Positions 509 through 24,450 are shown, counted from the stretch's first letter. The stretch: DNA of 64,000 nucleotides from Candidatus Sulfomarinibacteraceae bacterium (GCA_963823345.1 CAWGLE010000022.1:227656-291655); one strand, 5' to 3'. A program made the numbers and translations. Notes: generated by a model from the sequence alone, not told the origin.

Positions 509-556
509 GGAACGTTGAAACGTTCCAACGTTCAAACGTTTGAACGTTTCAACGTT
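509..556. repeat. six tandem octamers NNAACGTT, self-complementary array between convergent genes
   Basis: ggaacgtt gaaacgtt ccaacgtt caaacgtt tgaacgtt tcaacgtt read directly. The aspA stop codon (549-551) lies in the last unit. Confidence 0.9.
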
Positions 557-1967
557 GTGAGCGGTGGCGGCTGCGGCGGGTGCCGATCATGCGGGCGGGG
601 TCCATGACCGCCGCGATCTCCTCCTCGGAGAGGAGCTTTTTCTCCCGCACCAGCTCGACGATGCCGCGGTTGGTGGCCAGTGCCTCCTTGGCGAGCTCGG
701 TGGTGACGTCGTAGCCGAGCACCGGGTTGAGCGCCGTCACCACGCCGATGCTGCGCTCGATGTACTCGCGGCACACGTCCTGGTTGGCGGTAATGCCATC
801 GATGCAGTGGACGCGGAGGGTGCTCGCCGCGTTCATGAACATGGTCTGGGACTCGATGATGCAGTCTGCGATCACCGGCTCCATGACGTTGAGCTGGAGC
901 TGGCCGGCCTCCGCGGCCAGGGTCACCGCGAGATCGTTGCCGATCGCCCGGAAGCAAACCTGGTTGACCACCTCGGGGATGACCGGGTTGACCTTGCCGG
1001 GCATGATCGACGAACCCGGCTGCATCCGCGGCAGGTTGATCTCGTTGAGCCCGGCGCGGGGGCCCGATGACAACAGGCGGAGATCGTTGCAGATCTTCGA
1101 CAGCTTGATGGCGAGGCTCTTCTGACAGGACGAGTAGAGCACGAAGGGCTGGGTGTCCTGAGTCGCCTCGACCAGATCCGATGCGAGGCGGATCTCTTTG
1201 CCGGTGATTTCGACCAGGTGCTCGACACAGCGTTCGGCGTAGCCCTCCGGGGCGTTGAGCCCGGTGCCGATCGCGGTCCCTCCCATGTTGACCTCGAGCA
1301 GGACCTCCTCCGCCTCCGACAACGCGGTGATCTCGTTCTCCAGGCTTTCCGCCCAGGCGTCGAACTCCTGGCCGAGAGTCATGGGTACGGCGTCCTGCAA
1401 CTGCGTGCGGCCCATCTTGAGCACGCCCGCGAACTCCCCGCCCTTGTCGCGGAGGGCCGCCACCAGGGCGCCGAGCTCTTCGATGAGCAGGGTGTTGCCG
1501 AGGGCGATCGCCACGTGCAGGGCGCTCGGGTAGGCGTCGTTGGTGGACTGCGACCGGTTGACGTGGTCGTGCGGATCGCAGAAGCGGTAGTCGCCCTTGG
1601 CGTGGCCCATCAGCTCGAGGGCGCGGTTGGCGATGACCTCGTTGGCGTTCATGTTGGTCGAGGTGCCGGCGCCGCCCTGGATCACGTCCACCGGGAACTG
1701 GTCGTGGAGGGCGCCGCTGATGATCTCCCGGCACGCGCCCTCGATGCCGCGCAGGATTCCGTCGCTCAGCTTGCCGCAGTCGTGGTTGGCTCGGGCTGCT
1801 GCGAGCTTGATCATGGCCAGAGCGCGGATGAGCTCAGGATACTGGCTGATCGGCACCCCGGTGATGTGGAAGTTGTCGATCGCGCGCACCGTCTGGATGC
1901 CGTAGTAGGCGTCCGCGGGGACCTCTCTCTCGCCCAGAAGATCGTGCTCGACCCGGAACTCGGCCAT
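549..1967 (-). CDS. aspA: aspartate ammonia-lyase (class II fumarase/aspartase family)
   Basis: Track ORF 549..1994(-), start moved to Met10 (MAEFRVEHDLLGEREVPADAYYG). Family signature GSSIMPGKVNP is present. Confidence 0.9.
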   Translation of the reverse strand: MAEFRVEHDLLGEREVPADAYYGIQTVRAIDNFHITGVPISQYPELIRALAMIKLAAARANHDCGKLSDGILRGIEGACREIISGALHDQFPVDVIQGGAGTSTNMNANEVIANRALELMGHAKGDYRFCDPHDHVNRSQSTNDAYPSALHVAIALGNTLLIEELGALVAALRDKGGEFAGVLKMGRTQLQDAVPMTLGQEFDAWAESLENEITALSEAEEVLLEVNMGGTAIGTGLNAPEGYAERCVEHLVEITGKEIRLASDLVEATQDTQPFVLYSSCQKSLAIKLSKICNDLRLLSSGPRAGLNEINLPRMQPGSSIMPGKVNPVIPEVVNQVCFRAIGNDLAVTLAAEAGQLQLNVMEPVIADCIIESQTMFMNAASTLRVHCIDGITANQDVCREYIERSIGVVTALNPVLGYDVTTELAKEALATNRGIVELVREKKLLSEEEIAAVMDPARMIGTRRSRHRSQR

Positions 1968-2011: not shown

Positions 2012-2312
2012 GACCCACCACCCGACCATTTCGGATTTCGGATTTCGGATTTCGGATTTCCACCCCCCCCCCACCGACAATTGGCGTCCGAGTGCCCAGG
2101 GCGGGTGGGACCGCGCGCGGCGGAGGTGCCTGGCTCCCGACATGATGTTGCCCTCAACATCATGTCGGCGTGCCCGGCATCCTCTCGGGAATCGCGTGTG
2201 GAGACGGGCGCGTGCGGCGGAGGTGCCATCTTCACTCTTGTTGGATGCACTATCGCCCACGTGGGCATCGCGATGCGGGCCAACAATGGTGAAGGTGGCT
2301 CCTCCCGGGGAG
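2012..2312 (+). repeat. composite intergenic element, copy A: heptamer array, two conserved boxes, two hairpins
   Basis: (ATTTCGG)x4.7 at 2028-2060 flanked by C-tracts. Boxes ccgcgcgcggcggaggtgcc (2111-2130) and gcgcgtgcggcggaggtgcc (2208-2227). Hairpins at 2138-2167 (13 bp stem) and 2225-2299 (20 bp stem, 35 nt loop). Confidence 0.8.
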
Positions 2313-2371
2313 CGCGTTCTGAAAGGCGGGTTCACTCGATCGTCCGAATCTGGCGAGGGTACACTAACCGC

Positions 2372-5044
2372 ATGAACGACCCCAAACAACGCAAGAAGCT
2401 GTACCTGATCGACGGGCCCAACATGGCGTTCCGGGCGTTTTTCGCCATCGGCGGGATGAGCAACTCGCAGGGTCTGCCCACCAACGCCCTCTTCGGCTTC
2501 ACCAATATGCTGCTCAAGCTCATCCGTGACCAGAAGCCCGACTACCTGGCGATCGCCTGGGACCCCAAAGGCGGTACCTTCCGCGACCGTGTCTTTCCCG
2601 ACTACAAGGGCACTCGACCCGACATGCCGGATGCGCTGCGCACCCAGATGCCGTACTTCGCCCGGGTCGCCGAGGCTTTCGGGGTGCCCTATCTCTGTCT
2701 CGACGACTTCGAGGCCGACGACGTCATGGGCACCCTCGCCCGGCGCCACGAGGACGAGCTCGACGTGGTCCTGGTGACCTCGGACAAGGACCTGATGCAG
2801 CTGGTGAGCGACAACGTCACCCTGTTCGACTCGATGAAGGACCGCCGGATCTCCTACCCGGAAGTGGAGGAGAAGTTCGGCTGCGCGCCCGAGCTGGTTC
2901 CCGACGCGCTCGGCATATGGGGTGATTCGTCGGACAACATCCCGGGCGTCAAGGGGATCGGGGAGAAGGGCGTCAAGGCCCTGCTGGCGCGGTGGAAAGG
3001 GCTCGACGACATCTACGCCCACCTCGACGAGGTGACTCCGCCCGGGACCAGATCCAAGCTCGAGGCCAGCCGCGACAATGCCTATCTTTCCAAGGATCTG
3101 GCGACCATCCGTACCGACGCCCCGGTGGAGGTGAGCCTCGACGCGCTGAAGCTCGACTTCCCTCCCCCCGAGGACCGCGCCCAGGAGCTCTTCGGCGAGC
3201 TCGAGTTCCGCTCCCTGCTCAAGGAGTTCGGCGGCGCGATGGAGACCGTCGACCGCAGCGCCTACCGCCTCGCCGACACCGCGGCCGCGCTCGAGGAGCT
3301 GCGCTCGACGCTTGCCGCGGCCCCACGATTCGCCATCGACACCGAGACCACGTCACTCAACGCCCTGCAGGCCAAACTGGTCGGTCTGTCCTTCTGTTGC
3401 GACGACGACGTGGCCTGGTACGTGCCGGTGGGCCACTCGACCGGGGAGACCCAGCTCGGCTGGGAGCCGGTCCGCGAGGTCCTCGGGCCGATCATCGAGG
3501 ACCCCGGCAAGGGCAAGACCGGACAGCACCTGAAGTACGACCTCAAGGTGCTCGCCAAACACGGTGTCGAGATTCGCGGGATCGACGGCGACACCCTGCT
3601 CGCCGACTACCTCCTGAGCCCGGACCGCCGGTCGCACAAGCTCGACGACCTGGCGCTGATCCACCTCAACCACAAGATGATCTCCTACGCCGAAACCGCC
3701 GGCGCCCAGGCGAGCTTTGCGGAGGTCCTGACGGCTTCGGCAAGGGACTACGCTGCCGAGGACGCCCACGTGACCTGGCTGCTCGACAATAAGCTGACGC
3801 CGCTGGTCGAGGAGCAGGGCATGGAAAAGTTGTACCGGGAGCTCGAGCTGCCTCTCATTCCGGTGCTCGCGCGCATGGAAACGAACGGCATCGCGGTCGA
3901 CCGAACCGTCCTCGACGACTTGTCCGTCGAACTGACGGCCGGCATCGCAGAGGCCGAGAAACGATGCTACGAGGCCGCCGGCGAGGAGTTCAACATCGGT
4001 TCGGTGGTCCAACTGCGCGAGATCCTGTTCGAAAAGCTCGGGCTGCCGGTGGTCAAGAAGACCAAGACCGGGGCCTCCACCAACGAGACCGTACTGCTCG
4101 AGCTCACGGTCCACCACCCGCTGCCGCAGGCGATCCTCGACTACCGGTCGCTGGTCAAGCTCAAGAACACCTACGTCGACCCGTTGCCGGGCCTCATCGA
4201 CCCGGACACCGGGCGCATCCACACCCACTACTCGCAGACCACCGCCGCCACCGGCCGGCTCGCCTCCACCGACCCCAACCTGCAGAACATTCCGATCCGC
4301 ACCGCGGAGGGCCGGCGCATCCGCACTGCCTTCGTGGCGCCGCCCGGGAGGGTGCTGCTCGCGGCCGACTACTCCCAGGTGGAGCTGCGCGTCCTCGCCC
4401 ACCTGTGCGGAGGGACCGGCGGGTTCGCCGACGCCTTCGCGCGCGGCGCCGATGTTCACGCCGAGACTGCGGCCGGGCTCTTCGGCGTCCCTTCCAAAGA
4501 CGTTACCCGGGGAATGCGGGGCATCGCCAAGGCGGTCAACTTCGGGATCATCTACGGCCAGAGCGCATTCGGGCTCGCCCAGACCCAGCGCATCTCCAGG
4601 GCAGAGGCCGCCGACTACATCGCCCGCTACAAGGAGCGCTTTCCGGAGATCGAGGACTATCGGCAGCGGACCCTCGCCCAGGCCGCGGAGCACGGTTACG
4701 TGGAAACCCTGATGGGTCGCAGGAGGCCGGTCCCGGATCTCACCAGCGGCAACTTCGCGGCGCGCTCGGCCGCCGAAAGAGTCGCGGTCAACACCCCCGT
4801 CCAGGGCAGCGCCGCCGACCTCATCAAAAAGGCCATGCTGACGGTGGATCGACGACTCCGCTTGGAGTTCCCGGGCCAACTGCTGCTGCTTCAGGTCCAC
4901 GACGAGCTCCTGCTCGAGGTGGATGAGAATCTCGCCGACGAGATCGGCGAGATGGTGCGCCACGAGATGTGCTCGGCGATGGAGCTCTCCGTACCGCTGG
5001 TGGTCGACCTCGGGACCGGGCGGAATTGGGATGAGGCGCACTGA
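2372..5044 (+). CDS. polA: DNA polymerase I
   Basis: Track ORF 2081..5044, start moved to MNDPKQRKKLYLIDGPNMAFRAF (ATG 2372). 5'-nuclease N-terminus, DYSQVELRVLAH and QVHDELLLE polymerase motifs. Confidence 0.95.
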   Translation: MNDPKQRKKLYLIDGPNMAFRAFFAIGGMSNSQGLPTNALFGFTNMLLKLIRDQKPDYLAIAWDPKGGTFRDRVFPDYKGTRPDMPDALRTQMPYFARVAEAFGVPYLCLDDFEADDVMGTLARRHEDELDVVLVTSDKDLMQLVSDNVTLFDSMKDRRISYPEVEEKFGCAPELVPDALGIWGDSSDNIPGVKGIGEKGVKALLARWKGLDDIYAHLDEVTPPGTRSKLEASRDNAYLSKDLATIRTDAPVEVSLDALKLDFPPPEDRAQELFGELEFRSLLKEFGGAMETVDRSAYRLADTAAALEELRSTLAAAPRFAIDTETTSLNALQAKLVGLSFCCDDDVAWYVPVGHSTGETQLGWEPVREVLGPIIEDPGKGKTGQHLKYDLKVLAKHGVEIRGIDGDTLLADYLLSPDRRSHKLDDLALIHLNHKMISYAETAGAQASFAEVLTASARDYAAEDAHVTWLLDNKLTPLVEEQGMEKLYRELELPLIPVLARMETNGIAVDRTVLDDLSVELTAGIAEAEKRCYEAAGEEFNIGSVVQLREILFEKLGLPVVKKTKTGASTNETVLLELTVHHPLPQAILDYRSLVKLKNTYVDPLPGLIDPDTGRIHTHYSQTTAATGRLASTDPNLQNIPIRTAEGRRIRTAFVAPPGRVLLAADYSQVELRVLAHLCGGTGGFADAFARGADVHAETAAGLFGVPSKDVTRGMRGIAKAVNFGIIYGQSAFGLAQTQRISRAEAADYIARYKERFPEIEDYRQRTLAQAAEHGYVETLMGRRRPVPDLTSGNFAARSAAERVAVNTPVQGSAADLIKKAMLTVDRRLRLEFPGQLLLLQVHDELLLEVDENLADEIGEMVRHEMCSAMELSVPLVVDLGTGRNWDEAH

Positions 5045-5045
5045 G

Positions 5046-5312
5046 GACCCACCCGCCCGCCCATTTCGGATTTCGGATTTCGGATTTCGGATTTTCCGCC
5101 CGACCTCCCACCGAAAATTGGCGCCCGGGTGCTCAGGGTGGGTGGGACCGCGTGCGGCGGCGGTGCCATTTTCAACATTGTTGGACACATGGTCATCCAC
5201 GTCGGCAGGGATTCTCGAGCCAACAATGTTGAGGGTGGCTCCGCCCGGGAACCCACCCGAGGCAGCGATTCGTGGCCGACGGCCGAACTGGTAGGGTGGG
5301 TGGTGGTCGGCC
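5046..5312 (+). repeat. composite intergenic element, copy B
   Basis: (ATTTCGG)x4.7 at 5063-5095 flanked by C-tracts. Box ccgcgtgcggcggcggtgcc at 5148-5167. Hairpin 5165-5239 (20 bp stem, 35 nt loop). An identical extra box sits at 5382-5401. Confidence 0.8.
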
Positions 5313-5455
5313 ATCGGCCACTCGCTGGCCAGGGTTGGTCGCGGCGGCCGCAGGCCGCCAGCAAGCGCGTGCGGAAACGTGCCGCGTGCGGCGGCGGTGC
5401 CTGAAAGCCGGGACGCTTGACGCCACCCCCGGGTCAGCGTACGGTCGCCGGGACA

Positions 5456-5652
5456 GAGCGGTCACCATGAGGTGCCCGAGGGAAGCCGGTGAGAATCCGG
5501 CGCGGCCCCCGCCACTGTAACCGGGGACGCACCGTTCACGGAAGGGTCGAGTGTCGGCCCTTCCAGCCACTGACCGAGCAGGTCCGCGAGGGCCCATCGG
5601 TTGGGAAGGCGAGCGGTCGCGGCTGATCCGGGAGCCAGGAGACCTGCCGCTC
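5456..5652 (+). promoter_or_regulatory. cobalamin (B12) riboswitch
   Basis: gggaagccggtgagaatccggcgcggcccccgccactgtaaccgggga core, then agccactg, gggaaggc and B12-box gagccaggagacctgcc. P1 is gagcgg/ccgctc. It lies 27 nt upstream of the btuB-like start. Confidence 0.9.
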
Positions 5653-5678
5653 TGAATGAATGGAACGGGAGGTTTCAC

Positions 5679-7572
5679 ATGTCCGATCGGTATTTGGCCT
5701 ACATATCTCACCAGGTATCTGCGTTCATCATCGTCCTGTCGGCGGCCACGTCGTGGGCCCAGTATGCACCCCCGCCAACGGCCCAACCATTCACCGGCGA
5801 GGTCACCGTCACCGCCACCGGCGTCGAAACCGAGGTCGAGGAAGCGCCGACCGCGGTCACGGTCATCACGCGCGACGAGATCGACGACGCCCAGACCGGG
5901 TCCGTGGCCGAGATGCTTCGCCGGGTCCCCGGGCTGACCGTGGTGAGTTCAGGCGACCAGGGCAAGGTGACCTCGGTCTTTACCCGCGGCACCGGCTCCA
6001 ACCAGACCCTGGTCATGCTCGATGGAGTTCGCCTCAACTCGCCCTATTTCGGCGGATTCGACTGGAGCCGGCTCTCGACCGCCGGTCTGCGCCAGGTGGA
6101 GGTCGCTCGCGGACCCTACTCGGCGTTGTGGGGCGCCGACGCGGTCGGCGGCGTCATCAACCTCATTCCGGCGCGGTCGCGCTCCGGCTTCAATGGCCGC
6201 TTCTTCGGCGAAGGCGGTTCGGACGGCCGGCAGCGGCTGGAGGCCGACCTCGGGTGGGGCGGCGAGACGTTCGACATCTACGCCTCGGGGTTCGACGGCC
6301 AGAGCGACGGCAGCCTTCAGAACTCCGATTATTCGACGACTCAACTCCTGGTCACCGCCGGCTGGAGCTTCGGCGACCGCGGCAGCCGCATCGGTGTCGT
6401 CGTCCAGGACCTCGAGGGCGAGACCGGGATCCCCTTCGCCGTACCGGGCAACCCGACGCCGGAGCGAAGGCAGAACAGCCAGCAGACTCTGGTGGCCGTT
6501 CCCATCAACATCTTCTTCAGCGATTCGTGGAACGTCGAGCTCACCGGAGCGTCCGTGGACGGCAGTTTCGACTTCTCGGACCCGGACGACCCCTACTTCA
6601 CGTACTCGAACACCGAGACCGACTCCACCCAGTTGCGCCTCGCGAGCAACCACCGCTTCACCAGGCACGTCTTCAGCTGGGGCGGCGAGTGGCGGGAGGA
6701 CGAGGTCTCGGATGCCTCGAACTACGGCACCACCCTCGACAACGAGACCGTGGACGTCACGAGCTTCTTCGCCCAGGACGTGTGGAACATGAGCTCGGCG
6801 GTGCGGCTTCTGCTCGGTGTGCGGTGGGACGACTCCGACCCCTGGGGATCGGAGACCTCGCCCCGCGCCGATATCGGGTGGAAGCTCAGCGACACGGTCG
6901 AGGTCCGTGCGGGCTACGGCGAGGCCTTCCGCCCGCCGTCGCTCGGCGAGCTCTATTTCCCCTTTTCGGGGAATGCCGACCTGCTGCCGGAAACTTCGCA
7001 GTCGACCGACATCGGCCTCACCTACACCACCGCCAAACGCAAGTCCAGGTGGCAGGTGACCGCGTTCAGCACCGATCTCGAAAACCTCATCGAGTACGAC
7101 TTCACCACCTCCGCCAATGCCAATATCGGTTCCGCCACCATCCGCGGCGCCGAGCTTTCGTGGGACTTCCCGCTCGGGCGCCGGGGCGCGTCGTTTCTCC
7201 AGGCAACCTACCTCGACACCGAGGACGATCTCGGCCAGACCGTTGCTGCGGCGGCCGGAGTGGAGCGGATCGTGGACCCTCTACGGCGCTTTTTCGAAAC
7301 GTCTCAACGGTGATCTCACCGTGGTCTACGTGGGTTCCCGGCACGACGTCGACCCGCTGACATTCGAGCGCGCCACGGCCGACAGCTCCACGACCGCGAG
7401 CATCGCCCTCGCCTACGCCGCATGGCACGGGGTCGAGATCACCGGCAGGGTGCTCAACCTCGCCGACGCCGACTACCAGGAAGTCCTCGGCTATCCCGCT
7501 CCCGGGCGGCAGTACGTGGTCGGCCTCAGGCTCGGCGTCGACAACCTGCAGAGGCGGCAGAAACGGCCGTAG
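5679..7572 (+). pseudogene. btuB: TonB-dependent outer-membrane receptor (BtuB-like), frame broken near 7233-7240
   Basis: ORF 5601..7313 (start at Met27, RBS gggagg) carries the plug domain (DEIDDAQTGSVAEMLRRVPGL) and barrel. The C-terminal strands (LNLADADYQEVLGYPAPGRQYVVGLRL) continue in frame 1 (ORF 7117..7572). Confidence 0.8.
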
Positions 7573-7761
7573 GGGCCTGGTGGATATCGTCCGGCCGTCA
7601 ACCTCCGAACCGGTCGGAAGCCCTCACACCCGGAAGGGCTGTCGGCGATTTGACGGAATTTTGAAACTTCGGGTTCATATTTGCGTTCATGCTCATGTAT
7701 AGTGTGACTGAGATCGCGAATCACTTTCTCACCGAGATCACGAGATGAAAGGAGCGAGAAG

Positions 7762-8466
7762 ATGAAGAAGACATTCCTGGTGTTCGGAGTCGTGGCCTGT
7801 GCGACCCTCCTGGTCAACCCGGCCATGGCTTGTGATGGCAAGCAGGCGGCGCAGGTCAGCAACGACGGGACGTCGTGCGCGAAGGCCGCAACCCAGCAGG
7901 CGAGCAACGACGGGACGTCGTGCGCGAAGGCCGCAACCCAGCAGGCGACAAACGACGGGACGTCGTGCTCAAAGGCGGCTGTCAAGCAGGCCTCGAACGA
8001 CGGTTCGGGCTGCGCCACGTCGGCCGCCAAGGCCGCCTACGCCGAGGCCCTCGAGGCGACCGGCTGCGAGAAGACCGCGCAGACTGCCGCGAACAACGCC
8101 ATGGCCGAGAACGTCTACGCCAAGAGCTACGCGGAGAGCGGCTGCACCAAGACCGCGCAGAAGGCGGCTTACGACGCGGTGTACACGTCCACCAGCTGCG
8201 AGAAGTCTTCGGCTGCCGCCGCGACCCACGCGGTTGCTCAGGCCTCCTACAAGGAAACCCTGGCCAACACCGGCTGCGAGAAGACCGCTCAGGCGGCCTA
8301 CGCCAGCGTGACCACGACCGCCGGTGCCAGCTGCGCCACAGCTACTGCCAAGGCCGGTTGTGACAAGGCGGACTGCGACAAGGCCGATTGCGACAAGGGC
8401 GCCGAGACCTCTTCGGATGCGCCCGCCAGCACCGAGGTCAAAATGGCCTCGAACGATAACGGCTGA
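7762..8466 (+). CDS. secreted Cys-periodic, Ala-rich repeat protein, function unknown
   Basis: RBS aaaggag and signal peptide MKKTFLVFGVVACATLLVNPAMA. Repeats SNDGTSCAKAATQQA x3-4 (two 45-nt DNA copies are identical), GCEKTAQ-type x4, CDKAD x3. An intrinsic terminator follows. Confidence 0.75.
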   Translation: MKKTFLVFGVVACATLLVNPAMACDGKQAAQVSNDGTSCAKAATQQASNDGTSCAKAATQQATNDGTSCSKAAVKQASNDGSGCATSAAKAAYAEALEATGCEKTAQTAANNAMAENVYAKSYAESGCTKTAQKAAYDAVYTSTSCEKSSAAAATHAVAQASYKETLANTGCEKTAQAAYASVTTTAGASCATATAKAGCDKADCDKADCDKGAETSSDAPASTEVKMASNDNG

Positions 8467-8490
8467 GCGACCGCTCCCCGACAATCGACG

Positions 8491-8519
8491 ACACCCGGGC
8501 CCGGCCCGGGTGTTTTTTT
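8491..8519 (+). terminator. rho-independent terminator
   Basis: acacccggg / cccgggtgt 9-bp stem, 5-nt loop, then a T7 run. Confidence 0.75.
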
Positions 8520-8599
8520 GTGACCGGGAACACAGCGGCAGGACGGTCGCGAGTGCGACATTGCACCAAAGGGGGGCGAGTTCTTTGGAGAAAGGAAAG

Positions 8600-8929
8600 A
8601 TGATGGCACCGCCGAGATCGCGCCGTCTTCGCCTGCTCGAGAGCCTTCGCCGCACCATCAACGAGATGCTGCACGAGAGGGTTCACCGCGCGGCCTCCGC
8701 AAAGGGCCACGGCGCGCCTGTGAACACGAGCACGATCTACACCTCAGCCGCCAGGGAGGCTCCCGAGCTTCTCGATCAGTTGCTCTTCGTCCACCAGAAA
8801 GTGGACCAGGAACTGGGCGAGGCCAAGGAAGCGACGCCGCCCGCCCAACTCGCCGACCCCGACCGCAGGGCGATGTTGTCGGCCGTGCGGGCCGCTGTCA
8901 ACCGGACCCGCGCGAGCCTCGAGCGGTAG
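8600..8929 (+). CDS. hypothetical cytoplasmic helical protein (109 aa)
   Basis: Internal ATG of track ORF 8324..8929, preceded by ggagaaaggaaag. G/C-rich third codon positions. No recognisable family. Confidence 0.5.
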   Translation: MMAPPRSRRLRLLESLRRTINEMLHERVHRAASAKGHGAPVNTSTIYTSAAREAPELLDQLLFVHQKVDQELGEAKEATPPAQLADPDRRAMLSAVRAAVNRTRASLER

Positions 8930-8952
8930 CTGGTTTCGCGGGCAGCTCCGGT

Positions 8953-9696
8953 TCAGTCGCCCTCCGGCAGGCTGGAGGCGATGACCGCCCGGACCTCGTT
9001 GCTGAGCCGGTTACAGTCCTCGACGGTACATCCCTCCACAGCGACCGGCGGGTGGATGACCAATCGCGCCGACCCCGGCATGAGATCGGAGGTGCCGGCC
9101 GGCAGCACGTCCCGGGTGCCGACGATGGTCAACGGCAAAATCGGCAGCCCGAGATCGAGGGCCATGCGAAAGGCGCCCTTCTTGAACGGCTTCAGCTTCC
9201 CGCTCCGGCTCCGCGTTCCCTCGGGGAAAAAGACCACCGAGGTTCCGTCAACGATCGTGTTTTTGGCCCTCTCGAGAGTGGCCACGGCGGCCGCGTGGTC
9301 GGAACGATCGATGTAGATGTGGCCCAGCCGCTCGCAGGCCACGCCGATCCCCACCACGTTGCGCAGCTCTCTCTTCATGACCCACTTGAAGTCGACCCCG
9401 AGCCACCCGTAGAGAACGAAGATGTCGTACTGGCTCTGGTGGTTCGACACCAACACGTAGGACTGACCGGGATCGATATGCTCGCGGCCCTCGACCTGCA
9501 CCCGCATCGGCGTCACCCAGGCCATGACCCGCGCCCACGGCACCCCTGACAGCCGCGACGCGGTCCGCGGCGTCGTGAAGAACGGAAAGATCGCCCCGAT
9601 CGAGGCGAATATCGCCGTATTCAACGCCAGGACCGGCATGACCACCAGGTACTTGTAGGGTTGATACAGCCACCATGCGAGGTTTCGCTTCCTCAT
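8953..9696 (-). CDS. plsC: 1-acyl-sn-glycerol-3-phosphate acyltransferase
   Basis: Track ORF 8953..9804(-), start moved to Met37 (MRKRNLAWW). Acyltransferase motifs NHQSQYD and FPEGTRS. Confidence 0.85.
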   Translation of the reverse strand: MRKRNLAWWLYQPYKYLVVMPVLALNTAIFASIGAIFPFFTTPRTASRLSGVPWARVMAWVTPMRVQVEGREHIDPGQSYVLVSNHQSQYDIFVLYGWLGVDFKWVMKRELRNVVGIGVACERLGHIYIDRSDHAAAVATLERAKNTIVDGTSVVFFPEGTRSRSGKLKPFKKGAFRMALDLGLPILPLTIVGTRDVLPAGTSDLMPGSARLVIHPPVAVEGCTVEDCNRLSNEVRAVIASSLPEGD

Positions 9697-9805
9697 TGCA
9701 GGGTCATCATATCCAATCTCCGGTCCCACATGCCGGTGTTTTCGCCCGAGAGCGGCGCTTCGGGAATGGTATCCTTCCCCGTCTGCGAGGGATCCCGGAG
9801 GCACT

Positions 9806-11716
9806 GTGAGCGAGCGCTACTACATCACGACGCCGATCTACTACGTCAACGACATGCCCCACATCGGGCATATCTACACGACGGTGATGGCCGACATCTT
9901 CGCCCGCTATCACCGGTTGCGCGGCGCCGACGTCCGATTCCTGACCGGCACCGACGAGCACGGCCAGAAGATCGAAAAGGCGGCCCGCGACCAGGGGATC
10001 GAGCCCATCCAACTCGCCGACCGGGTGGTCGCCCGCTATCACGGTCTGTGGAAGACCTTCAATATCTCCAACGATGATTTCATCCGGACCTCCGAGAGCC
10101 GCCATCAGCGGGCGGTCGACGAGATCATCCGCCGTATCACGGCGGCGGGTGACATCTACAAGGGCGAGTACGAGGGCTGGTATCTGGCGGCCGACGAGGC
10201 TTTCATCCCCGACTCCCAGGTCAAGGACGGCCACGACATCGAGAGCGGGCGGGCGGTCGAGAGGCTCTCCGAGTCCAGCTACTTCTTCCGTCTCTCGGCG
10301 TACCAGGACCGGTTGCTCGAGTGGTACCGCGCCAACCCGGAGTGCATCCGCCCCCGCAGCCGGTACAACGAGGTGGTCAGTTTTGTCGAGGGCGGGCTCC
10401 GCGATCTGTCGATCTCCCGCACCTCGCTCACCTGGGGGGTGCCCTACCCCGACGACGAAGAGCACGTCGTGTATGTGTGGCTCGACGCCCTCACCAACTA
10501 CATCTCGGCCCTCGGGTTCGGCAGCGACGACGAGTCGATGTACGACAGGCACTGGCCCGCAACGATGCACCTCGTCGGCAAGGACATCCTCCGCTTCCAC
10601 TGCGTCTACTGGCCCGCTTTCCTGATGTCGGCCGGGCTGCCGCTGCCCACCCAGATCTTCGGGCACGGATGGTGGTTGCGGGACGACGCCAAGATGTCGA
10701 AGTCCCTCGGCAACGTGGTCCGTCCGGACTACCTCATCGAGCGATTCGGACCGGACGCCCTTCGCTATTTCGTGGCCCGCGAGATGGCCTTCGGCCAGGA
10801 CGCCTCGTTTTCGGACGAAGCGTTCCTCGAGCGCTTCAACGCCGATCTCGCCAACGCCCTCGGCAACACCTCCTCGCGCACCCTCTCGATGACCGGCCGC
10901 TACCTCGAGAGTCTGGTGCCTGCCCGGTCGGACGAAGGGCCGGTGCCGGTGGCCGCCCGGGCGGCCGTGGCCGGTTATCTCGAGCACATGGAGGGCGGCG
11001 AACCGCACCGCGCCCTCGAGGTCGCGTGGCAGCTGCTCAAGGCCATCGACGTCCACATCCAGGAGACTCAGCCGTGGGCCCGGGCCAAGGAGGGCGAGGC
11101 AGGACGATCGTCCCTCGACTCGACCCTCTACGTGTCTCTGGAGGGGCTGCGGATCATCTCGCAGCTGATCGAACCCTTCATGCCGTCGACCGCCCTCCAG
11201 CTGCGACGCCAGATCGGTATCGAAGACGCGCCCCGGAACCTCCGCGCAGCCCTGGAGTGGGGCGGTCTCGCCGAGGGCACCCGGATCGGCACCACCGAAC
11301 CGTTGTTTCCCCGCGTCGACATCGCCGCCTATCTCAAGGAGCTCCAGATGGACACACCGGCTGCGGCCACCGCAAAAGAAAAAGAAGAGGATCTTCTCAG
11401 CATCGACCAGTTCTTCCAGACGAAGTTGGTCGTGGGCACGGTTCGCGAAGCCGAGCCGGTACCGAAGTCGAAGAAACTGGTCCGCCTGTTGGTGGACCTC
11501 GGCGAGCCCCAGCTGCGTCAGCTGGTCGCCGGCATCGGCGAGCGCTACCAGGCAGGAGATCTCGTCGGCCGCCAGATCGTGGTGGTCTCGAACCTCAAAC
11601 CTGCCAAGCTCATGGGGGTCCAGTCGCAGGGGATGCTGCTCGCAGCCAACGTGGAAGGCGCACCGTTCCTGCTCTCACCCGACGCCGAGGTCCCGCCCGG
11701 AACGGTGGTGAGCTAG
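9806..11716 (+). CDS. metG: methionine--tRNA ligase with C-terminal tRNA-binding domain
   Basis: GTG start. HIGH motif (PHIGHIYT) and KMSKS (KMSKSLGN). Trbp111/EMAP-like C-terminus. Confidence 0.95.
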   Translation: MSERYYITTPIYYVNDMPHIGHIYTTVMADIFARYHRLRGADVRFLTGTDEHGQKIEKAARDQGIEPIQLADRVVARYHGLWKTFNISNDDFIRTSESRHQRAVDEIIRRITAAGDIYKGEYEGWYLAADEAFIPDSQVKDGHDIESGRAVERLSESSYFFRLSAYQDRLLEWYRANPECIRPRSRYNEVVSFVEGGLRDLSISRTSLTWGVPYPDDEEHVVYVWLDALTNYISALGFGSDDESMYDRHWPATMHLVGKDILRFHCVYWPAFLMSAGLPLPTQIFGHGWWLRDDAKMSKSLGNVVRPDYLIERFGPDALRYFVAREMAFGQDASFSDEAFLERFNADLANALGNTSSRTLSMTGRYLESLVPARSDEGPVPVAARAAVAGYLEHMEGGEPHRALEVAWQLLKAIDVHIQETQPWARAKEGEAGRSSLDSTLYVSLEGLRIISQLIEPFMPSTALQLRRQIGIEDAPRNLRAALEWGGLAEGTRIGTTEPLFPRVDIAAYLKELQMDTPAAATAKEKEEDLLSIDQFFQTKLVVGTVREAEPVPKSKKLVRLLVDLGEPQLRQLVAGIGERYQAGDLVGRQIVVVSNLKPAKLMGVQSQGMLLAANVEGAPFLLSPDAEVPPGTVVS

Positions 11717-11792
11717 CTCGAGTGACTCGCTTTTTCTGAGATTCCCCGACACTCTTGATCAGATCTGAACGCCTTGGCGTTCCTCGATGTGT

Positions 11793-12066
11793 CTGTCCCG
11801 ACCGAGGCAGCGAAACCACGTCATTCCCTGTCATCCCGACCGAGGCAGCGAAACCACTTCATTTCCTGTCATCCCGACCGAGGCAGCGAAGCCACTTCAT
11901 TTCCTGTCATCCCGACCGAGGCAGCGAAGCCACTTCATTTCCTGTCATCCCGACCGAGGGAGCGAAGCGACTGAGCGGAGGGATCTGGGGGGTGGTTTCA
12001 GGAACGCCACTGCCTGCAACCCCCACCCAGATCCCTCGGCTCGCTGTGCTCGCTCGGGATGACATT
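11793..12066. repeat. 38-bp tandem repeat (about 5 units) ending in an imperfect inverted repeat
   Basis: Unit ctgtcatcccgaccgaggcagcgaagccacttcatttc starts at 11828, 11866 and 11904 (partial at 11793, divergent at 11942). The inverted partner cccagatccctcggctcgctgtgctcgctcgggatgaca lies at about 12022-12064. Confidence 0.85.
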
Positions 12067-12099
12067 TTGTGATTCGAGGCTCCCGGGACCGTATGCAGG

Positions 12100-12600: not shown

Positions 12601-13391
12601 ACGGCGATCGGCGCCTTGATGGCGGGGTGCGGGTCGTAGCCATCGAGCCGAATGTCTTCAAACCGGAATGCGAAGATCGAATCCACAACCGGATTCAGAT
12701 ACAGGGTCGGCAGTCGTCGCGGCTCCCGGGCGAGTTGTGTCTCAGCCTGTTCGACGTGGTTGAGGTAGAGGTGGACGTCGCCGAACGTGTGAATGAACTC
12801 CCGCGCTTCCAGACCACAGACCTGCGCCACCATCATGGTCAACATCGCATAGGACGCGATATTGAAGGGCACACCGAGAAAGACATCGGCGCTTCGCTGG
12901 TAGAGCTGGCAGGAGAGACCACCTTCGGCCACCCAGAACTGAAACAGACAGTGGCACGGCGGCAGGGCCATCCTGTCGATGTCTGCCACGTTCCACGCCG
13001 AGACGATGTGGCGCCGCGAATCGGGATCGTGGCGGATGCCGTCGATCAGCCTCGAAACCTGGTCGATGCTCCCCCCGTCGGGCGTCGGCCACGACCGCCA
13101 CTGAGAACCGTAGATCGGCCCGAGGTCACCCTCACCGTCCGCCCACTCGTCCCAGATGGTGACCTTGTTGTCGTGGAGGTAGCGGAGGTTGGTGTCGCCG
13201 GCGAGAAACCACAGGAGCTCGTGGATGATCGACCGTAGGTGGAGCTTCTTGGTCGTCAGGGCGGGGAAACCGCGGCGGAGATCGAACCGCATCTGATAGC
13301 CGAACGCGCTCAAGGTGCCGGTGCCCGTCCGATCCGATTTCGTGACGCCGTTTTCGAGGACGTGGCTCAGGAGGCCCAGATACTGCTTCAC
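12597..13391 (-). CDS. thyA: thymidylate synthase
   Basis: Track ORF 12597..13508(-), start moved to GTG ([15 protein letters not shown]), giving 264 aa. Catalytic PPCHCLFQF. Start overlaps the kdsC stop (GTGA). Confidence 0.95.
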
Positions 13392-13951
13392 GAACGCGGC
13401 GTCCCCTGGCTGACCCAGCGGCCGACCACATCCATCCACTTGCCCTGAACCTTGAGGATCAGCTCGGCGAACTCGCGGACAGCGCCGACACCACCGTTGG
13501 CGCCGCACACCAGATCGCAGACAGCCAACACCTCCGGCGTCGCGTCCGCCGGGCAGGCGGTGAAGACCGCACGCTCCAGCAGCGGCAGGTCGGGGAGGTC
13601 GTCGCCCATCGCCGCGACCTCGAGATCCACGATGTCCAGCAGTTCTTCGATCCGTTCGAGGTCGGCGACCTTGTCCTTCGAGCCGAGGATGATCAGTTCG
13701 GACCGGATGCCGAGCTCGCTGCAGCGCGCGGCAACCGCCTCACTCGACCGTCCTGAAATGACGGCCACTTGAACGCCCGCCTCGAGCAGGAGGCGGATCC
13801 CGAGCCCGTCACGGACCGAGAAGGTCTTCTGCTCTTCACCACGGCTGCTGTACGTCAGGCTGCCGTCGGTCAGCACTCCGTCCACGTCCAGAACCAACAG
13901 CCGGACAGGTTCGAGGCGGTGGCGGATCTCGGTGGGAACTCGACTCGGCAT
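13388..13951 (-). CDS. kdsC: 3-deoxy-D-manno-octulosonate 8-phosphate phosphatase (HAD, YrbI family)
   Basis: HAD motif [12 protein letters not shown]; [10 protein letters not shown]; typical length. Confidence 0.8.
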
Positions 13952-13975: not shown

Positions 13976-14087
13976 GAGTTCTCAGTTTTGAGTTTTGAAT
14001 TTTGAATTTTGAATTCCCACCCACCCCCCCACCGACGGGAATGTCCAAGTGCTCAGGTTCGGCGGAACCGCGTACGGCGGAGGTGCC
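13976..14087 (+). repeat. composite intergenic element, truncated copy C
   Basis: Octamer array (ttttgaat-type) at 13976-14016, C-tract cccacccacccccccaccga, box ccgcgtacggcggaggtgcc at 14068-14087. Confidence 0.75.
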
Positions 14088-14100
14088 GGCGAAGGGCTCC

Positions 14101-16956
14101 TCAGAACGCCAATCGCACGACGATCGGATCGTGGTCGCTGGCGCGATCGGTCGCCGGGAAATCGGCATTGACGTGGACGATGTCGATCTCGGCGCCGTCA
14201 TCCAGCGCCCCGCTGACCAGCACGTGATCGAGGACTTGCGAATTGCCCTGGTAGACGTACGTGTATCGCTGTTCCCTCGGAACGCTCATCACGAGGTCGG
14301 TGAGACCGGCCGCCATGAGGGACCTCAAGGGCTCCGTGTTTTCGAAGTCGTTGAAATCGCCCAGCACGATCACACCGGTCGTCGGATCCGCGGCCGCGAC
14401 CTGCTCGACAAACCGGGCCAGCGCCTCGGCCTGCTCTGTGCGGCGCTCCGTGGATCCGGTCTGCGGCGGCTGGCGGCGGCCGAATATCGGGTCGTCGCCG
14501 CCCTTCGACACCAGGTGAACGTTGACGACCACCAGCCGCCGCCCGTTGAACCGGAATTTCCCGGCCAGCGGTTTGCGGCTGCCGGCCCCTTCCTCCGCTC
14601 CGGCCGTGAAGGCGCGGTTCAGCGGATCCACCAGCCCCGGGCTGCAGCTCAGGATCGGGTCGGCGGCGACCGCCACCGCGGCGTCGGGTCCGCACCCGGA
14701 CCGGTCGACAAAATCGACCCGCGCCGGGTTGAACAGCAGGACGGTGCGGATATTCGCGCCGGGCTGTCCGCCGTCCGCGCTGTCGGCCGGGTCGACGGAT
14801 CGCCAGTGGTATCGAACGCCGCCCGCCCGCTCGATTGCTTCCACCAGGCGGGTCAACGTCAGATTCGCCGAAACCGTGCCGTCATCTGCGGGCCCGGTGT
14901 CGTCCTGCACCTCCTGCACGGCGAGGATGTCAGGGTTGGCGAGGCTGCCGGCGATGATCCGGGCGAGGCTCGCGAATTTTTCGGCCTCCGACCCGGCCCA
15001 CACGTTCTCGAGGTTCATGGTGGCAACCGTCAGGTGGACCCCGTCACCCGCCAACGCGGTGCGATCGGGCTCCCTGAAACCAGGGTTGACAACCTGTAAA
15101 TTCTCTGTATTGAGTATCTTGTAACTACCGTAGGTGAAGTGGAGGATTCCATCCACCGGTCCTTCCAACCGGTCGCCAACGGCCAGCTGCGGCGGGTTGG
15201 GCACCAGGGCGTCGTCGATCACCACACGCTCGGGGTGGACGTTGCAGGGGGTCAAGCGGAGTCCGCCTCGCGCCGTCCACGGCGCCGAGCCGTGTCCGCC
15301 GTCTCCGACCACCACCGCTTCACCGTGGCCGGAGGTCGGACCAACGACCACCGGTTCTTCGACCCGCACCCGCATGCCCTCGAGCGTCTCGAACGCATCG
15401 GCCGCGTATCGGGACGGGTCGAACACCCGCAGCTGCCGCGAGGCCACCTCGCCGCGCGGGATCGGAACTCCACCCTCACCGATCACGACCGCATCCGGCA
15501 GCGCGAGGTCGTGCCCCGCAAACTCGAGATGGGAGGCCACGATTCTGGTCACCGGCAGCTCGAGGCCCCACGAACGCTCCTCGACCCGGCCGTCGAGACG
15601 CACGAGATCGCCGACTGCAACCGCTGCGGTGCCCTCGAGGGCCGTCACCAGAACGCCCTCGGAGGTCGAAGCATCGTCGTCGCTCGCAAGCCCCTGGATC
15701 CAGAAGGCCTGGCCCTTTCGCTGACCGAGAATGGCGGTGACGACGCCTTCAACACCGACCACGCACCGGCCGGCAAAGGGTGAGAAATGACCTGCGCCCT
15801 GGATATCGTGCACCTTCGGCCTGGATGCTTCCGCGACCGGGCCCGCCACGCCCGATACCGCGAAGAGCAAGACCTGGTTGTCCTGGACCGACGGCTGGAA
15901 GTTGTTGTCCGCCATCAGCACCAGCTGGCGGCGGCCGTCGGGCAGCGCGGGACCGAATGTGACGCTCTCCAGGTTGTCCGGTGCGACCCCGAAGTCGGCG
16001 AGATCGGCGACGAGGACCTTGGTCACCGGCCGCGGCGGGTCGGCGCCGGCACCAGCGACCGCCACCACACCGTGGATATCGGTGGCACCCTCGAGGTCGA
16101 CGAGAAAAAGCCGGCAGCGGTTGCCGACGCCGGCCGAAAAGGAACGTTCGAGCACCAGCAGGTGGGTGCGGTCGAGAGCGACGATCTCCGAGATCCCGTT
16201 GGTGCGGAAGGCGCCGGCAGGGCGCGGTGCGTCGGGCACCGGTTCGACGAGGTACAGATACTCGGCCGACGGCACGCCCCGGGCGAGATCGAACACGAGC
16301 AGGCGGGACGGGCTCCCGGTCTCGAGGTCGGTCGCCGGTCCATCCTGGAGCAGGGCGTTTTCGGTTGCGGCAAAGAGCAGCGTCCCGTCGGGGGAGAGGG
16401 CGAGCCCCTCGAAGCCGAGGTTGTCGCGGACCCCCCGCAGACCGGAGGCGTCGGGCAGGTAGGCGTCGGGCACCGGAAGGGTGCCGTGCAGCGATCCGTC
16501 GAGACCGAATATCGCCACCGCCGGATCGACCCCTCGGTGGGGCACTCCCTCGGTCGCGAGGTAGAGCGTTCCATCGAGGGCGAGAGCGATGGCCTCCGGG
16601 TCCAGGTTGCCGTCGCTGAAGGGTCCGCCGTCGGCGTCGAGGAGGACCGTCGCTGCAAGGACCTCGACCGCGACTTCGCCGTCCTGCACCGCCACTCGCA
16701 GGGTAAAAAAGCGCGGCAACCCGAAGGACCCGCGATCATCGGAGAGGGCGTAGTAGAGGTCGCACCCCGGATCGTAGGCCAGCCCGGAAAGACCTCCGAC
16801 CCGGGTGCGGTCAACCTCGAGATCGCCGGGAATAACGGTCTTCCCCAGGAGCTGGAGCTCGACTACACCGGCGGCAGGGGCCAGGGACGCGGCGAGGCAG
16901 ACCATCGCTCCGAGGACGAGTTTTTCGAAGGCGAGGGGCCTCACTCGAAGGCCCAC
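14101..16956 (-). CDS. secreted ExeM/NucH-type extracellular endonuclease (EEP domain) fused to an N-terminal phytase-like esterase domain
   Basis: Signal peptide. N-terminal GLSGLAYDP / FEGLALSPDG / NGISEIVAL phytase-like motifs. VHDIQGAGHFSPFAG...GVVTA ExeM/NucH hallmark. C-terminal EEP fold (ILAVQEV...DHDPIVVRLAF). An alternative GTG at 16944 gives a GTGA overlap with the upstream gene. Confidence 0.75.
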   Translation of the reverse strand: MGLRVRPLAFEKLVLGAMVCLAASLAPAAGVVELQLLGKTVIPGDLEVDRTRVGGLSGLAYDPGCDLYYALSDDRGSFGLPRFFTLRVAVQDGEVAVEVLAATVLLDADGGPFSDGNLDPEAIALALDGTLYLATEGVPHRGVDPAVAIFGLDGSLHGTLPVPDAYLPDASGLRGVRDNLGFEGLALSPDGTLLFAATENALLQDGPATDLETGSPSRLLVFDLARGVPSAEYLYLVEPVPDAPRPAGAFRTNGISEIVALDRTHLLVLERSFSAGVGNRCRLFLVDLEGATDIHGVVAVAGAGADPPRPVTKVLVADLADFGVAPDNLESVTFGPALPDGRRQLVLMADNNFQPSVQDNQVLLFAVSGVAGPVAEASRPKVHDIQGAGHFSPFAGRCVVGVEGVVTAILGQRKGQAFWIQGLASDDDASTSEGVLVTALEGTAAVAVGDLVRLDGRVEERSWGLELPVTRIVASHLEFAGHDLALPDAVVIGEGGVPIPRGEVASRQLRVFDPSRYAADAFETLEGMRVRVEEPVVVGPTSGHGEAVVVGDGGHGSAPWTARGGLRLTPCNVHPERVVIDDALVPNPPQLAVGDRLEGPVDGILHFTYGSYKILNTENLQVVNPGFREPDRTALAGDGVHLTVATMNLENVWAGSEAEKFASLARIIAGSLANPDILAVQEVQDDTGPADDGTVSANLTLTRLVEAIERAGGVRYHWRSVDPADSADGGQPGANIRTVLLFNPARVDFVDRSGCGPDAAVAVAADPILSCSPGLVDPLNRAFTAGAEEGAGSRKPLAGKFRFNGRRLVVVNVHLVSKGGDDPIFGRRQPPQTGSTERRTEQAEALARFVEQVAAADPTTGVIVLGDFNDFENTEPLRSLMAAGLTDLVMSVPREQRYTYVYQGNSQVLDHVLVSGALDDGAEIDIVHVNADFPATDRASDHDPIVVRLAF

Positions 16957-17674: not shown

Positions 17675-20243
<2,569 letters not shown>

Positions 20244-23612: not shown

Positions 23613-23632
23613 CCCACCCACCCTTCCCTCTG

Positions 23633-23749
23633 ATTTCGGATTTCGGATTTCGGATTTCGGATTTGTCCCCCACCCACCCGACGTTCAGAAGTGGTGGGAG
23701 GGCGGTCGGGAAATCCGAAATCCGAAATCCGAAATCCGAAATCCGAAAT
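23633..23749. repeat. inverted pair of heptamer arrays, (ATTTCGG)n ... (CCGAAAT)n, between the regulator and kinase genes
   Basis: Left array 23633-23664, right array 23709-23749, about 44-nt C/G-tract loop. The regulator stop codon lies in the last unit. Confidence 0.9.
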
Positions 23750-24450
23750 CACGGGCTGCTCCCGCTGTGCTTGACGTACACGTAGCCGACGCCCCGCACT
23801 GTCTTGATCCGCTCCCCGCCTTCCGGCGAACGGCCCAGCTTGCGGCGGAGATTGGAGAGGTGGACATCGAGGCTGCGATCGTAGGCACTCGAACGGCGGC
23901 CCAGTGCCTGGCGCGACAGCTCGTCCCGACCGACCACGGTTCCCGCCTCGCGGAGGAGGACCTCCAGGATCATGAACTCGGCCCCGGTGAGTTCGACCTC
24001 GCGGCCGCCGCAGCGGACCTCCCTGGCCCCGGGATCCAGCTGCACGTCGCCGACCGAGTAGGACATCGCGCCATCGTCCGCGGGTTCCTCCGCAGTCCTG
24101 CGGAGAATGGCGCGGATCCTCGCCACGAGCTCTCGGGGGTTGAAAGGCTTGGCGAGATAGTCGTCCGCACCCATCTCGAGGCCGACGATCCTGTCGACGT
24201 CCTCGCCGCGAGCGGTCAGCATGATCACGGGGACCTTCGACCGCTCGCGGATACGGCTGAGGACCGCGAACCCACCGAGTCCCGGCAGCATGACATCAAG
24301 GATCACCAGATCCGGATCGTCGTCGAGGCAGCGGACAACCCCGGTAACGCCATCGTGAACGGCAGCCACTTCCAGCCCTTCACCCCGCAGATACTCGCTC
24401 ACGAGATCGCAGAGATCGGTGTCGTCGTCGATGATCAGGACCCTCGTCAT
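23749..24450 (-). CDS. OmpR-family response regulator (CpxR/BaeR-like)
   Basis: Receiver domain (VLIIDDD...LDVMLPG) and winged-helix C-terminus (VRGVGYVY). Confidence 0.9.
   Translation of the reverse strand: MTRVLIIDDDTDLCDLVSEYLRGEGLEVAAVHDGVTGVVRCLDDDPDLVILDVMLPGLGGFAVLSRIRERSKVPVIMLTARGEDVDRIVGLEMGADDYLAKPFNPRELVARIRAILRRTAEEPADDGAMSYSVGDVQLDPGAREVRCGGREVELTGAEFMILEVLLREAGTVVGRDELSRQALGRRSSAYDRSLDVHLSNLRRKLGRSPEGGERIKTVRGVGYVYVKHSGSSP

Follow-up and report, generated by a model that had tools for sequence, protein, structure and literature searches.

A probable lineage-specific family of non-coding mosaic repeats with a box-framed, strand-specific hairpin in Candidatus Sulfomarinibacteraceae

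The DNA analysed here (the window) is a stretch of 64,000 nucleotides of high-GC sequence from a Candidatus Sulfomarinibacteraceae bacterium (GCA_963823345.1 CAWGLE010000022.1:227656-291655), and the element in question is a composite intergenic repeat built around a conserved 20-nt box, CCGCGYRCGGCGGMGGTGCC. The region flagged originally, 2012-2312, falls within the 404 nt that separate a minus-strand aspartase/fumarase-like gene (549..1967) from polA (2372..5044), and Pfam annotations on orthologous loci back both identities. The polA stop codon and a cobalamin riboswitch (5442-5665, Rfam 90 bits) flank a second composite, and the riboswitch itself stands 5' of a TonB-dependent receptor gene. 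The third has minus-strand genes on both sides (13388..13951 and 14101..16956), and its minimal unit shares 2 nt with the stop codon of the latter. The nearest sequences are metagenome-assembled genomes (MAGs) of Candidatus Sulfomarinibacteraceae (Acidobacteriota; Thermoanaerobaculia; Thermoanaerobaculales); a locus in one of them, L111, is colinear with window positions 4399-12267 at 84-88% identity.

A sequence-only reading of this DNA had described five boxes, a common module order at three loci and two large hairpins, and had taken the whole for a candidate structured RNA or an element resembling a miniature inverted-repeat transposable element (MITE). The anatomical part of that description was correct, and what it called a composite element is the true architecture of a family. 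All five boxes are present on the plus strand at the positions reported (Table 1), whereas shuffled sequences held a mean of 0.56 and none of 100 reached five. The covariance model (CM) R1, built from 30 copies, matched the five box places alone in the 64 kb. The order shared by the three loci (a C-tract, an ATTTCGG or TTTTGAA array, a C-tract with CACCGA, about 35 nt, a G-tract and then the box) could be read directly and was also recovered as repeat families D4, D7, D10 and D13 and by Tandem Repeats Finder (TRF). Hairpins follow four of the five boxes, as had been claimed: a short one after the box at 2111, long ones after those at 2208 and 5148, and a minimal one after that at 14068, while the box at 5382 belongs to a truncated unit. 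The two long stems (2225-2299 and 5165-5239) do have 20 bp and loops of 35 nt, and the differences between them at stem positions 6, 7, 11, 12 and 13 were re-derived by hand and found correct. Both stems also extend outward, with GGAGG (2219-2223) pairing with CCTCC (2301-2305) in the first and GGCGG (5159-5163) with CCGCC (5241-5245) in the second, which is a further A-U to C-G compensatory change. The variable "M" position of the box therefore covaries with a base about 80 nt distant; alignment pair 32/121 is AU in 29 copies and CG in one, and the same double change occurs in the related locus L062.

A scan for the box with one genome per species returned at least 117 loci. Among the matches listed, about 40 loci come from five Candidatus Sulfomarinibacteraceae MAGs, three from Acidobacteriota ChS5.bin.55 and one from a Thermoanaerobaculia MAG; the other matches listed are single chance ones in GC-rich Actinomycetota and others. 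A metagenome scan added further copies with short (S1) and long (L) apices, and R1 found more than 40 full long units in related loci, which lifts the earlier worry that two copies were too thin for covariation evidence. As regards known RNA families, a gathering-threshold Rfam scan of the whole window returned the cobalamin riboswitch and a tRNA and nothing at the element, and a scan of 1960-2380 at E<=10 gave sub-threshold miRNA and snoRNA noise only. In the literature, no account was found of the box sequence or of repeats in Thermoanaerobaculia, and a search on STRR repeats was likewise empty. The family is apparently lineage-specific and undescribed so far. A ribozyme was considered and rejected, as the linker reads CTGATAC or CGGAAAC at one position and never holds both cores, and no Rfam ribozyme matched. 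A link to phages was also sought, and the one viral-contig match was a chance one inside an Ala/Gly-rich open reading frame (ORF).

The box is not free-standing. A basal stem takes its 5' strand from the 3' half of the box, GGAGGTGCC, which pairs with GGCTCCTC; CGGGAAG follows the latter. The Shine-Dalgarno-like GGAGGTG that the sequence-only reading had noticed in the box is indeed there, and it is explained as one strand of this stem. The frame of a unit consists of a single-stranded 5' flank (GCGTGCGGC), the basal stem and a 3' flank made of N-CGGGAAG and the linker GCGTGCGGAAACGAGCC, which leads directly into the next box, and units run head to tail. Five types of apex were seen on the basal stem in the window and its relatives: a 7-nt loop (window 14079-14102); TGGCTTCAGCCTGGC; a short GC-rich or ATTGT-containing hairpin (S1; window 2119-2191); a long hairpin of about 75 nt (L; window 2219-2312 and 5159-5252); and, in relatives, either a AACGTTNN octamer array (L118) or a heptamer array with the C-tract/G-tract hairpin termed module A (L054). 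When 13 distinct S1 units were aligned, the apical pairs covaried. Long units can be stacked, as in L108, where five stand in tandem with a 121-nt period and the pattern A-B-B-B-A. In the L054 chimera, the array and module A take the place of the apex and are joined at AGGGTGG. The usual order across species is a heptamer array, module A, units and a terminal module (GCGCGTTCTGAAAGGCGGGTTCAC...), though some composites end in an inverted heptamer array (L028, L041 and L064). Module A also precedes boxes in L028, L054, L066, L080 and L098, and orphan boxes are found at window position 5382 and in L066 and L080. A small hairpin further upstream, GCGTGCGG/CCGCGTGC, in which the linker would pair with the 5' half of the box, was rejected because only 64% of cells were paired and the linker is a direct repeat of the box start, which makes the pairing ambiguous.

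The long hairpin is maintained by compensatory change. RNAalifold on 30 long units (alignment A1) gave 27 pairs, 7 of them with compensatory changes, and a count of pairs over the structure drawn up for this analysis found the long helix 97.8% paired. As a control, the partner strand was slid by 1-3 columns and pairing was then 43-52%. Changes on both sides of a pair were found in 47 cells compared with 13.2 in shuffles, and the covariation score was reached by none of 500 shuffles; because the copies share ancestry, the independent events are fewer than the cells counted. The fold is also specific to the box strand, as the sequence-only reading had suspected when it favoured the plus strand. 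Across 43 units (alignment A3), 134 cells hold G·U or U·G and 2 hold A·C or C·A. With RNA parameters the box strand was stabler than its reverse complement in all 40 units compared (-45.7 vs -36.3 kcal/mol), and with DNA parameters in 37 of the 40, the gap between strands being 9.4 kcal/mol in the first case and 2.4 in the second. Taken together, the G·U excess, the strand stability and the covariation indicate that selection acts on the hairpin in single-stranded form, folded from the box strand, and RNA and DNA are alike compatible with this.

The units are strictly intergenic and indifferent to the orientation of the neighbouring genes. With genes called by GC content at third codon positions (GC3), all box clusters (42/42) are intergenic, and the four orientation classes relative to flanking genes hold 10, 9, 8 and 7 cases (convergent 10, divergent 9, tandem 15), which is close to random. 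Neither a sigma-70 consensus nor an intrinsic terminator was found in either of the two window loci scanned, with the proviso that promoters of this phylum may escape such a scan. Module A and the box were also considered as places for a sigma-54 or sigma-70 promoter, and this was rejected, since TGGCGT-N-GTGC has a non-canonical GG-N9-GC spacing and the scan found none. Upstream of solo units no sequence conservation was seen, and units stop right at the promoter-like sites beside the elements, as if occupying all free DNA. The presence of promoter-like sites beside the units, the random orientation and the unconserved upstream sequence argue against a 5'-untranslated-region regulator, a terminator or a small RNA gene with a conserved promoter.

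Two observations on the promoters of neighbouring genes can be added. A promoter-like site, TTGACG-N17-TACGGT (5417-5445), stands directly 5' of the riboswitch and is kept in L111, L118, L119 and L120, in contrast to the variable, repeat-filled DNA on its upstream side. In all five relatives (window 2360-2374; L118, L119, L120 and L121), the polA ATG is preceded at 6-7 nt by a TACACT hexamer with no Shine-Dalgarno sequence between, which suggests that the polA mRNA may be leaderless.

Whole units are gained, lost and replaced between close relatives, and this is most easily followed on both sides of polA. After polA, an array, module A and units are present in the window, L118 and L119, where PolA is 91-92% identical in amino acids and polA 86-87% in nucleotides. 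L120 has only a diverged L-like hairpin at this site, and L111 and L121 have other heptamers (CCTGCAT and CTCGATG) without a box. The orphan box at 5382 corresponds to an L118 unit that still has an octamer-array apex, a tail and the same GGCGG/CCGCC variant, and the window copy is a deletion remnant. The long unit that follows polA in the window is absent from L118, which carries AACGTTNN arrays in frames at both orthologous polA-flanking sites. Upstream of polA, identical flanks in L118 and L119 enclose a frame with an octamer array in the former and with an L hairpin in the latter. Elsewhere, window positions 11715-12108 hold 38-nt repeats where L111 has a long unit.

When the long units that the window and L119 have at one shared polA-flanking site are compared, 12 of 32 stem positions differ, each time with pairing preserved, while the loops are about 60% identical and polA 87%. 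Compensatory evolution in situ was considered and rejected, since there are too many differences for the divergence of polA and the loops are so unlike. Because the loop similarity is the family average, the difference is read, from these comparisons, as probable replacement by another subfamily. Variants of the stem (CAAC/GTTG, TGAC/GTCA, TGGC/GCCT and GTCAC/GTGAC, among others) define subfamilies, of which a genome holds several dispersed members; this is the pattern that copying from structured master copies produces.

The data presented here suggest that these units probably constitute a family of interspersed mosaic repeats, non-coding and non-autonomous, that is specific to the lineage of Candidatus Sulfomarinibacteraceae and relatives (Acidobacteriota, Thermoanaerobaculia). 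In behaviour they resemble REP/REPIN, BIME or NIME repeats rather than a discrete regulatory RNA gene. Units would persist by being copied or exchanged whole via a single-stranded hairpin intermediate, which could be DNA, in the manner of the REP/REPIN-RAYT system, or possibly RNA. A candidate protein would read the invariant box and tail, and homologous or microhomology-mediated recombination between frames could then produce tandem arrays, truncations and chimeras. Effects on neighbouring genes, for example through stable stem-loops in read-through transcripts, would be secondary.

Several observations weigh against this interpretation. No transposase or recombinase and no recurrent ORF was found beside the units, within the 8-kb pieces of MAGs that were searched. 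All-against-all clustering of ORFs from 37 loci yielded ordinary paralogues and orthologues only, with no recurrent integrase-like ORF, and a tblastn search with IS200 TnpA gave no match in 1.29 Mb of such pieces, which is a weak test. Unit strand was not associated with local GC skew or net gene strand (p = 0.30 and 0.73; also a weak test, on 8-kb chunks), unlike the orientation of many elements that depend on single-stranded DNA (ssDNA). Dispersed copies are equally alike within and between MAGs (loop 60%, frame 85%), and thus there is no sign of a recent burst. At the orthologous sites compared, neither a target-site duplication nor a clean empty site could be delimited. The G·U excess is in part inherited from a few master copies, with fewer independent events than cells. 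Finally, an orthologous unit shared by L069 and L097 keeps 98.2% identity, private loop included, next to a gene with 70-82% identity, a pattern that looks like local purifying selection and would fit a host function at least as well. The conserved stretch (L069 7117-7335, L097 39-257) comprises the long unit at 98% and the next 88 nt at 94% identity between two species, and the candidate causes are selection, conversion or recent exchange.

A functional structured RNA, transcribed from the box strand and acting in cis or in trans, is rather unlikely, yet it is the alternative that survives best. In cis it would be a stable rod-like stem-loop serving as a barrier to exonucleases, as a substrate of RNase III or as an insulator of neighbouring transcripts, and in trans the units would be a multi-copy small RNA family with differing apical loops. 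The strand-specific fold and the covarying stem are what such an RNA would show, and dispersed copies are old and still keep the stem. It retains its share of probability because of the size of the G·U bias, the greater strand asymmetry with RNA than with DNA parameters and the one strongly conserved orthologous copy in L069 and L097. However, the random gene orientation means that half of the copies would be antisense under read-through, there is no enrichment at the 3' ends of genes, no consensus promoter stands 5' of the boxes and no terminator 3', and the sequence upstream of solo units is unconserved. Units are also often truncated, chimeric or replaced at orthologous sites, and no Rfam family matches them. 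The part of the sequence-only reading that proposed a composite, multi-copy and structurally constrained element stands, and its terms MITE-like and structured are right in spirit, whereas a discrete RNA gene or cis-regulator finds no support; a riboswitch-like element or small RNA gene is not the verdict reached here, and the term "RNA gene" is not supported.

The interpretation as mosaic repeats can be taken one step further, to a version that we hold tentatively and consider unlikely. The frame, with its invariant box and CTCCTC-CGGGAAG tail, could be the recognition hairpin of a dedicated strand-specific enzyme of the HUH, tyrosine-recombinase or a new type. The substrate of such an enzyme would be folded ssDNA, or RNA with reverse flow, and entire units would be copied or swapped together with their apices. 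If true, this would be a vertically inherited REPIN-RAYT-like replicator system with an unrelated sequence family in Thermoanaerobaculia, and it might also seed the accompanying 7- and 8-nt tandem arrays and the C-tracts prone to form G-quadruplexes.

It is improbable that the repeats are instead an array of duplex DNA sites, in which the invariant box would be a binding or crossover site for a site-specific recombinase or nucleoid protein, and the material between boxes would be spacer accumulated by repeated recombination. Models of this kind have been proposed for the neisserial dRS3/RS (NIME) arrays, the description of which fits in outline (PMC1797815), and, with binding of IHF or gyrase, for E. 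coli BIMEs. The near invariance of the box over more than 100 copies, next to between-box material that varies in type and length, would be expected of such an array, as would the orphan boxes and the dynamics of arrays between relatives. What it leaves unexplained is the pair-preserving covariation of the stem and the near-absence of A·C compared with G·U, and the box is itself half of a stem that covaries with the far strand (GGAGG/CCTCC to GGCGG/CCGCC). Nor was a recombinase gene found nearby. A classical MITE, that is, a deletion derivative of a DDE-type insertion sequence whose hairpin arms are terminal inverted repeats bound as duplex, is very improbable despite its 25-26-bp inverted arms around a short interior and its multi-copy, strictly intergenic occurrence with presence/absence differences between relatives, since the conserved flanks are asymmetric (box 5', CGGGAAG and linker 3'), the arrays are unidirectional and head to tail with shared flanks, the arm sequences covary freely (ATTGT/ACAAT excepted), nearly every mismatch is a T·G on one strand, neither orphan arms nor arms on either side of a gene were found, and neither a target-site duplication nor a matching transposase was seen. 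Strand-specific covariation and the asymmetric, unidirectional layout make both of these explanations less likely than mosaic repeats with a single-stranded intermediate.

Among known systems, the closest resemblance is to REPINs, which occur with their RAYT transposases in Pseudomonas and Enterobacteria and consist of two inverted REPs, each an imperfect palindrome, around a spacer. In these, the spacers form hairpins and are never identical, and tandem arrays reach up to five (PMC3337134); REPINs are thought to fold in ssDNA or RNA and are old, vertically inherited and not bursting (PMC3337134; PMC3116915). The units described here are likewise short, extragenic, high-copy and lineage-specific, with dozens of copies in five MAGs, and they share the long imperfect hairpin in which conserved ends pair and a never identical interior still forms a hairpin, the tandem arrays of up to five units, the long persistence and the folding as ssDNA or RNA. 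The differences are that the arms are not each a REP palindrome (the palindromy of CAAC-ATT-GTTG occurs in one subfamily only and without covariation), that the flanks are asymmetric and all units of an array point in the same direction, and that unrelated modules can take the place of the apex. A cognate RAYT is a single-copy HUH/Y1 gene with the repeats on its flanks; none was found beside the units, a weak test on 8-kb MAG pieces.

NIMEs consist of RS units of 50-150 nt flanked by 20-bp dRS3 boxes, and the number and content of units differ between close relatives (PMC1797815). Here too, diverse units of 50-150 nt stand in arrays that are punctuated by a conserved box of about 20 nt and vary between relatives. 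However, dRS3 is an inverted repeat (ATTCCC-N8-GGGAAT) and a duplex target of phage or recombinase, whereas the present box is one strand of a stem that covaries with a distant partner, its self-complementarity (CCGC..GCGG) is confined to the 5' half, and there is no sequence similarity. Each likeness thus fails on a defining feature, since the arms lack the REP palindromes of REPINs and the box lacks the dRS3-type inverted repeat of NIMEs, and this is a new family.

E. coli BIMEs (REPs with linker motifs), the pneumococcal BOX elements (boxA-boxB(n)-boxC) and the ERIC and Correia MITEs are modular intergenic mosaics that, once transcribed, give strong stem-loops, and they are found in both orientations relative to genes. 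The present units resemble them in being modular intergenic mosaics with strong stem-loops in either orientation, but have no sequence relationship to them. BIMEs also alternate the orientation of their REPs whereas the units here are unidirectional, and ERIC and Correia elements have symmetric terminal inverted repeats, Correia with a TA target duplication. The cyanobacterial STRR (short tandemly repeated repetitive) sequences are intergenic tandem arrays of a 7-nt unit with several unit sequences per genome. The heptamer arrays of the window share these traits, but differ in phylum and unit sequences and in being tied to C-tract/G-tract hairpins, often as inverted pairs, and joined to box units. 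Integron attC sites are hairpins of one strand with a conserved base and a terminal structure of a few nt to about 100 nt. The likeness to attC is one of architecture only (a one-strand hairpin, a conserved base and an apex of variable size), since there are no RYYYAAC/GTTRRRY cores and the AAC/GTT positions covary away in subfamilies. Moreover, the units abut without ORFs or cassettes, no intI is nearby and copies are spread genome-wide.

The find is solid but belongs to a familiar category, its mechanism is inferred, and by itself it opens no long-standing question. It provides an Acidobacteriota example of old, structured non-coding intergenic repeats, which are known mainly from Proteobacteria, Neisseria and Firmicutes, and the combination of an invariant base, an interchangeable apex and strand-specific covariation makes it a tractable case for distinguishing upkeep by an enzyme, by RNA function or by recombination. 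In practical terms, these repeats will confound assembly, the discovery of intergenic RNA motifs and promoter prediction in Thermoanaerobaculia MAGs, and R1 can be used to mask or catalogue the family.

Table 1. Repeat features of the 64-kb window, with their positions and the basis of each assignment
Feature	Position	Strand	Basis or remark
C-rich tract before array, ACCCACCACCCGACC	2012..2027	+	read directly; part of repeat family D4
Heptamer array, ATTTCGG x4.7	2028..2060	+	TRF, 100% matches; pattern search
Module A: C-tract, CACCGA, small internal hairpin, G-tract (GGGCGGGTGGGA); own hairpin	2061..2110	+	family D10; fold
Box 1; 3' half GGAGGTGCC is the 5' basal-stem strand of the next unit	2111..2130	+	
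Short unit S1: basal GGAGG/CCTC, middle GCC/GGC, apical 14-bp hairpin 2137-2168, tail CTCTCGGGAA	2119..2191	+	13-unit alignment; fold
Linker TCGCGTGTGGAGACGG, homologous to family linker GCGTGCGGAAACGAGCC	2192..2207	+	
Box 2	2208..2227	+	1 mismatch
Long unit L: 25-26-bp stem, one U·U mismatch, 35-nt partly self-paired loop, tail CGGGGAG	2219..2312	+	CM 117 bits; RNAalifold and pair counts; fold -64 kcal/mol
Terminal module T, AGCGCGTTCTGAAAGGCGGGTTCACTCGATCG	2311..2345	+	recurs after units in L043, L056, L027, L053, L111
Second composite: C-tract, ATTTCGG x4.6 array (5063-5094), module A	5046..5147	+	
Box 3, C variant GGCGG	5148..5167	+	
Long unit; basal GGCGG/CCGCC, compensatory vs GGAGG/CCTCC; tail CGGGAAC	5159..5252	+	CM 119.6 bits
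Other hairpin modules (GGCAGCGA...TCGCTGG type; GGCGGCCGCAGGCCGCC), then linker GCGCGTGCGGAAACGTG (5365-5381)	5253..5381	+	fold
Box 4, truncated unit	5382..5401	+	orthologous L118 unit retains insert and tail
Third composite: GAGTTTT/TTTTGAA array (13976-14015) and module A	13976..14067	+	TRF; D7, D10
Box 5 and minimal unit: GGAGGTGCC, 7-nt loop, GGCTCCTC	14068..14102	+	CM partial match 14050-14112
Box-less related element: inverted ATTTCGG arrays enclosing C-tract/G-tract hairpin	23632..23750		
Same box-less type	40293-40472; 57107-57238		
Same box-less type, single array	20230-20277		

Some companion repeats of the window have no box. Box-less arrays of the ATTTCGG, TGAATTT and GAGTTTT types are each followed by a CCCACCC-type tract, and three of them are inverted pairs that face inward from the flanking genes. 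Their presence implies that the element made of an array and a C-tract is commoner than the box units. At the orthologous site after polA, the heptamer has changed in concert, being ATTTCGG in the window, ATTTCGA in L118 and GAATTCG in L119. Tandem octamer arrays of AACGTTNN, with a palindromic AACGTT core, are found at 511-556, 37961-38005 and 63791-63831. G-quadruplex-type motifs (four runs of three or more G, loops of 1-7 nt) number 11 in the window, and six of these lie within 60 nt of heptamer arrays: 5048-5062(-), 5127-5146(+), 14016-14030(-), 23613-23628(-), 40383-40401(-) and 40416-40439(+). A module similar to the hairpins at 5253..5381 was met in metagenome contigs.

The 38-nt repeat that stands in place of the L111 long unit is a tandem of 4.7 copies with 96% matches (11796-11972); next to it, at 11960-12064, comes a 43-nt inverted repeat that belongs to the widespread GTCATCCCGA...TCGGGATGAC type, and this module recurs in L028 and L020. 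Other repeats of the window are coding. Repeats of 45 nt and about 78 nt (7851-7976 and 8026-8309) lie in the coding region 7762-8466, which suggests a repetitive protein, and 25218-28448 and 29785-32571 are paralogous large genes with stretches of about 70% identity (D6, D14-D16) that have the look of a duplicated transporter type.

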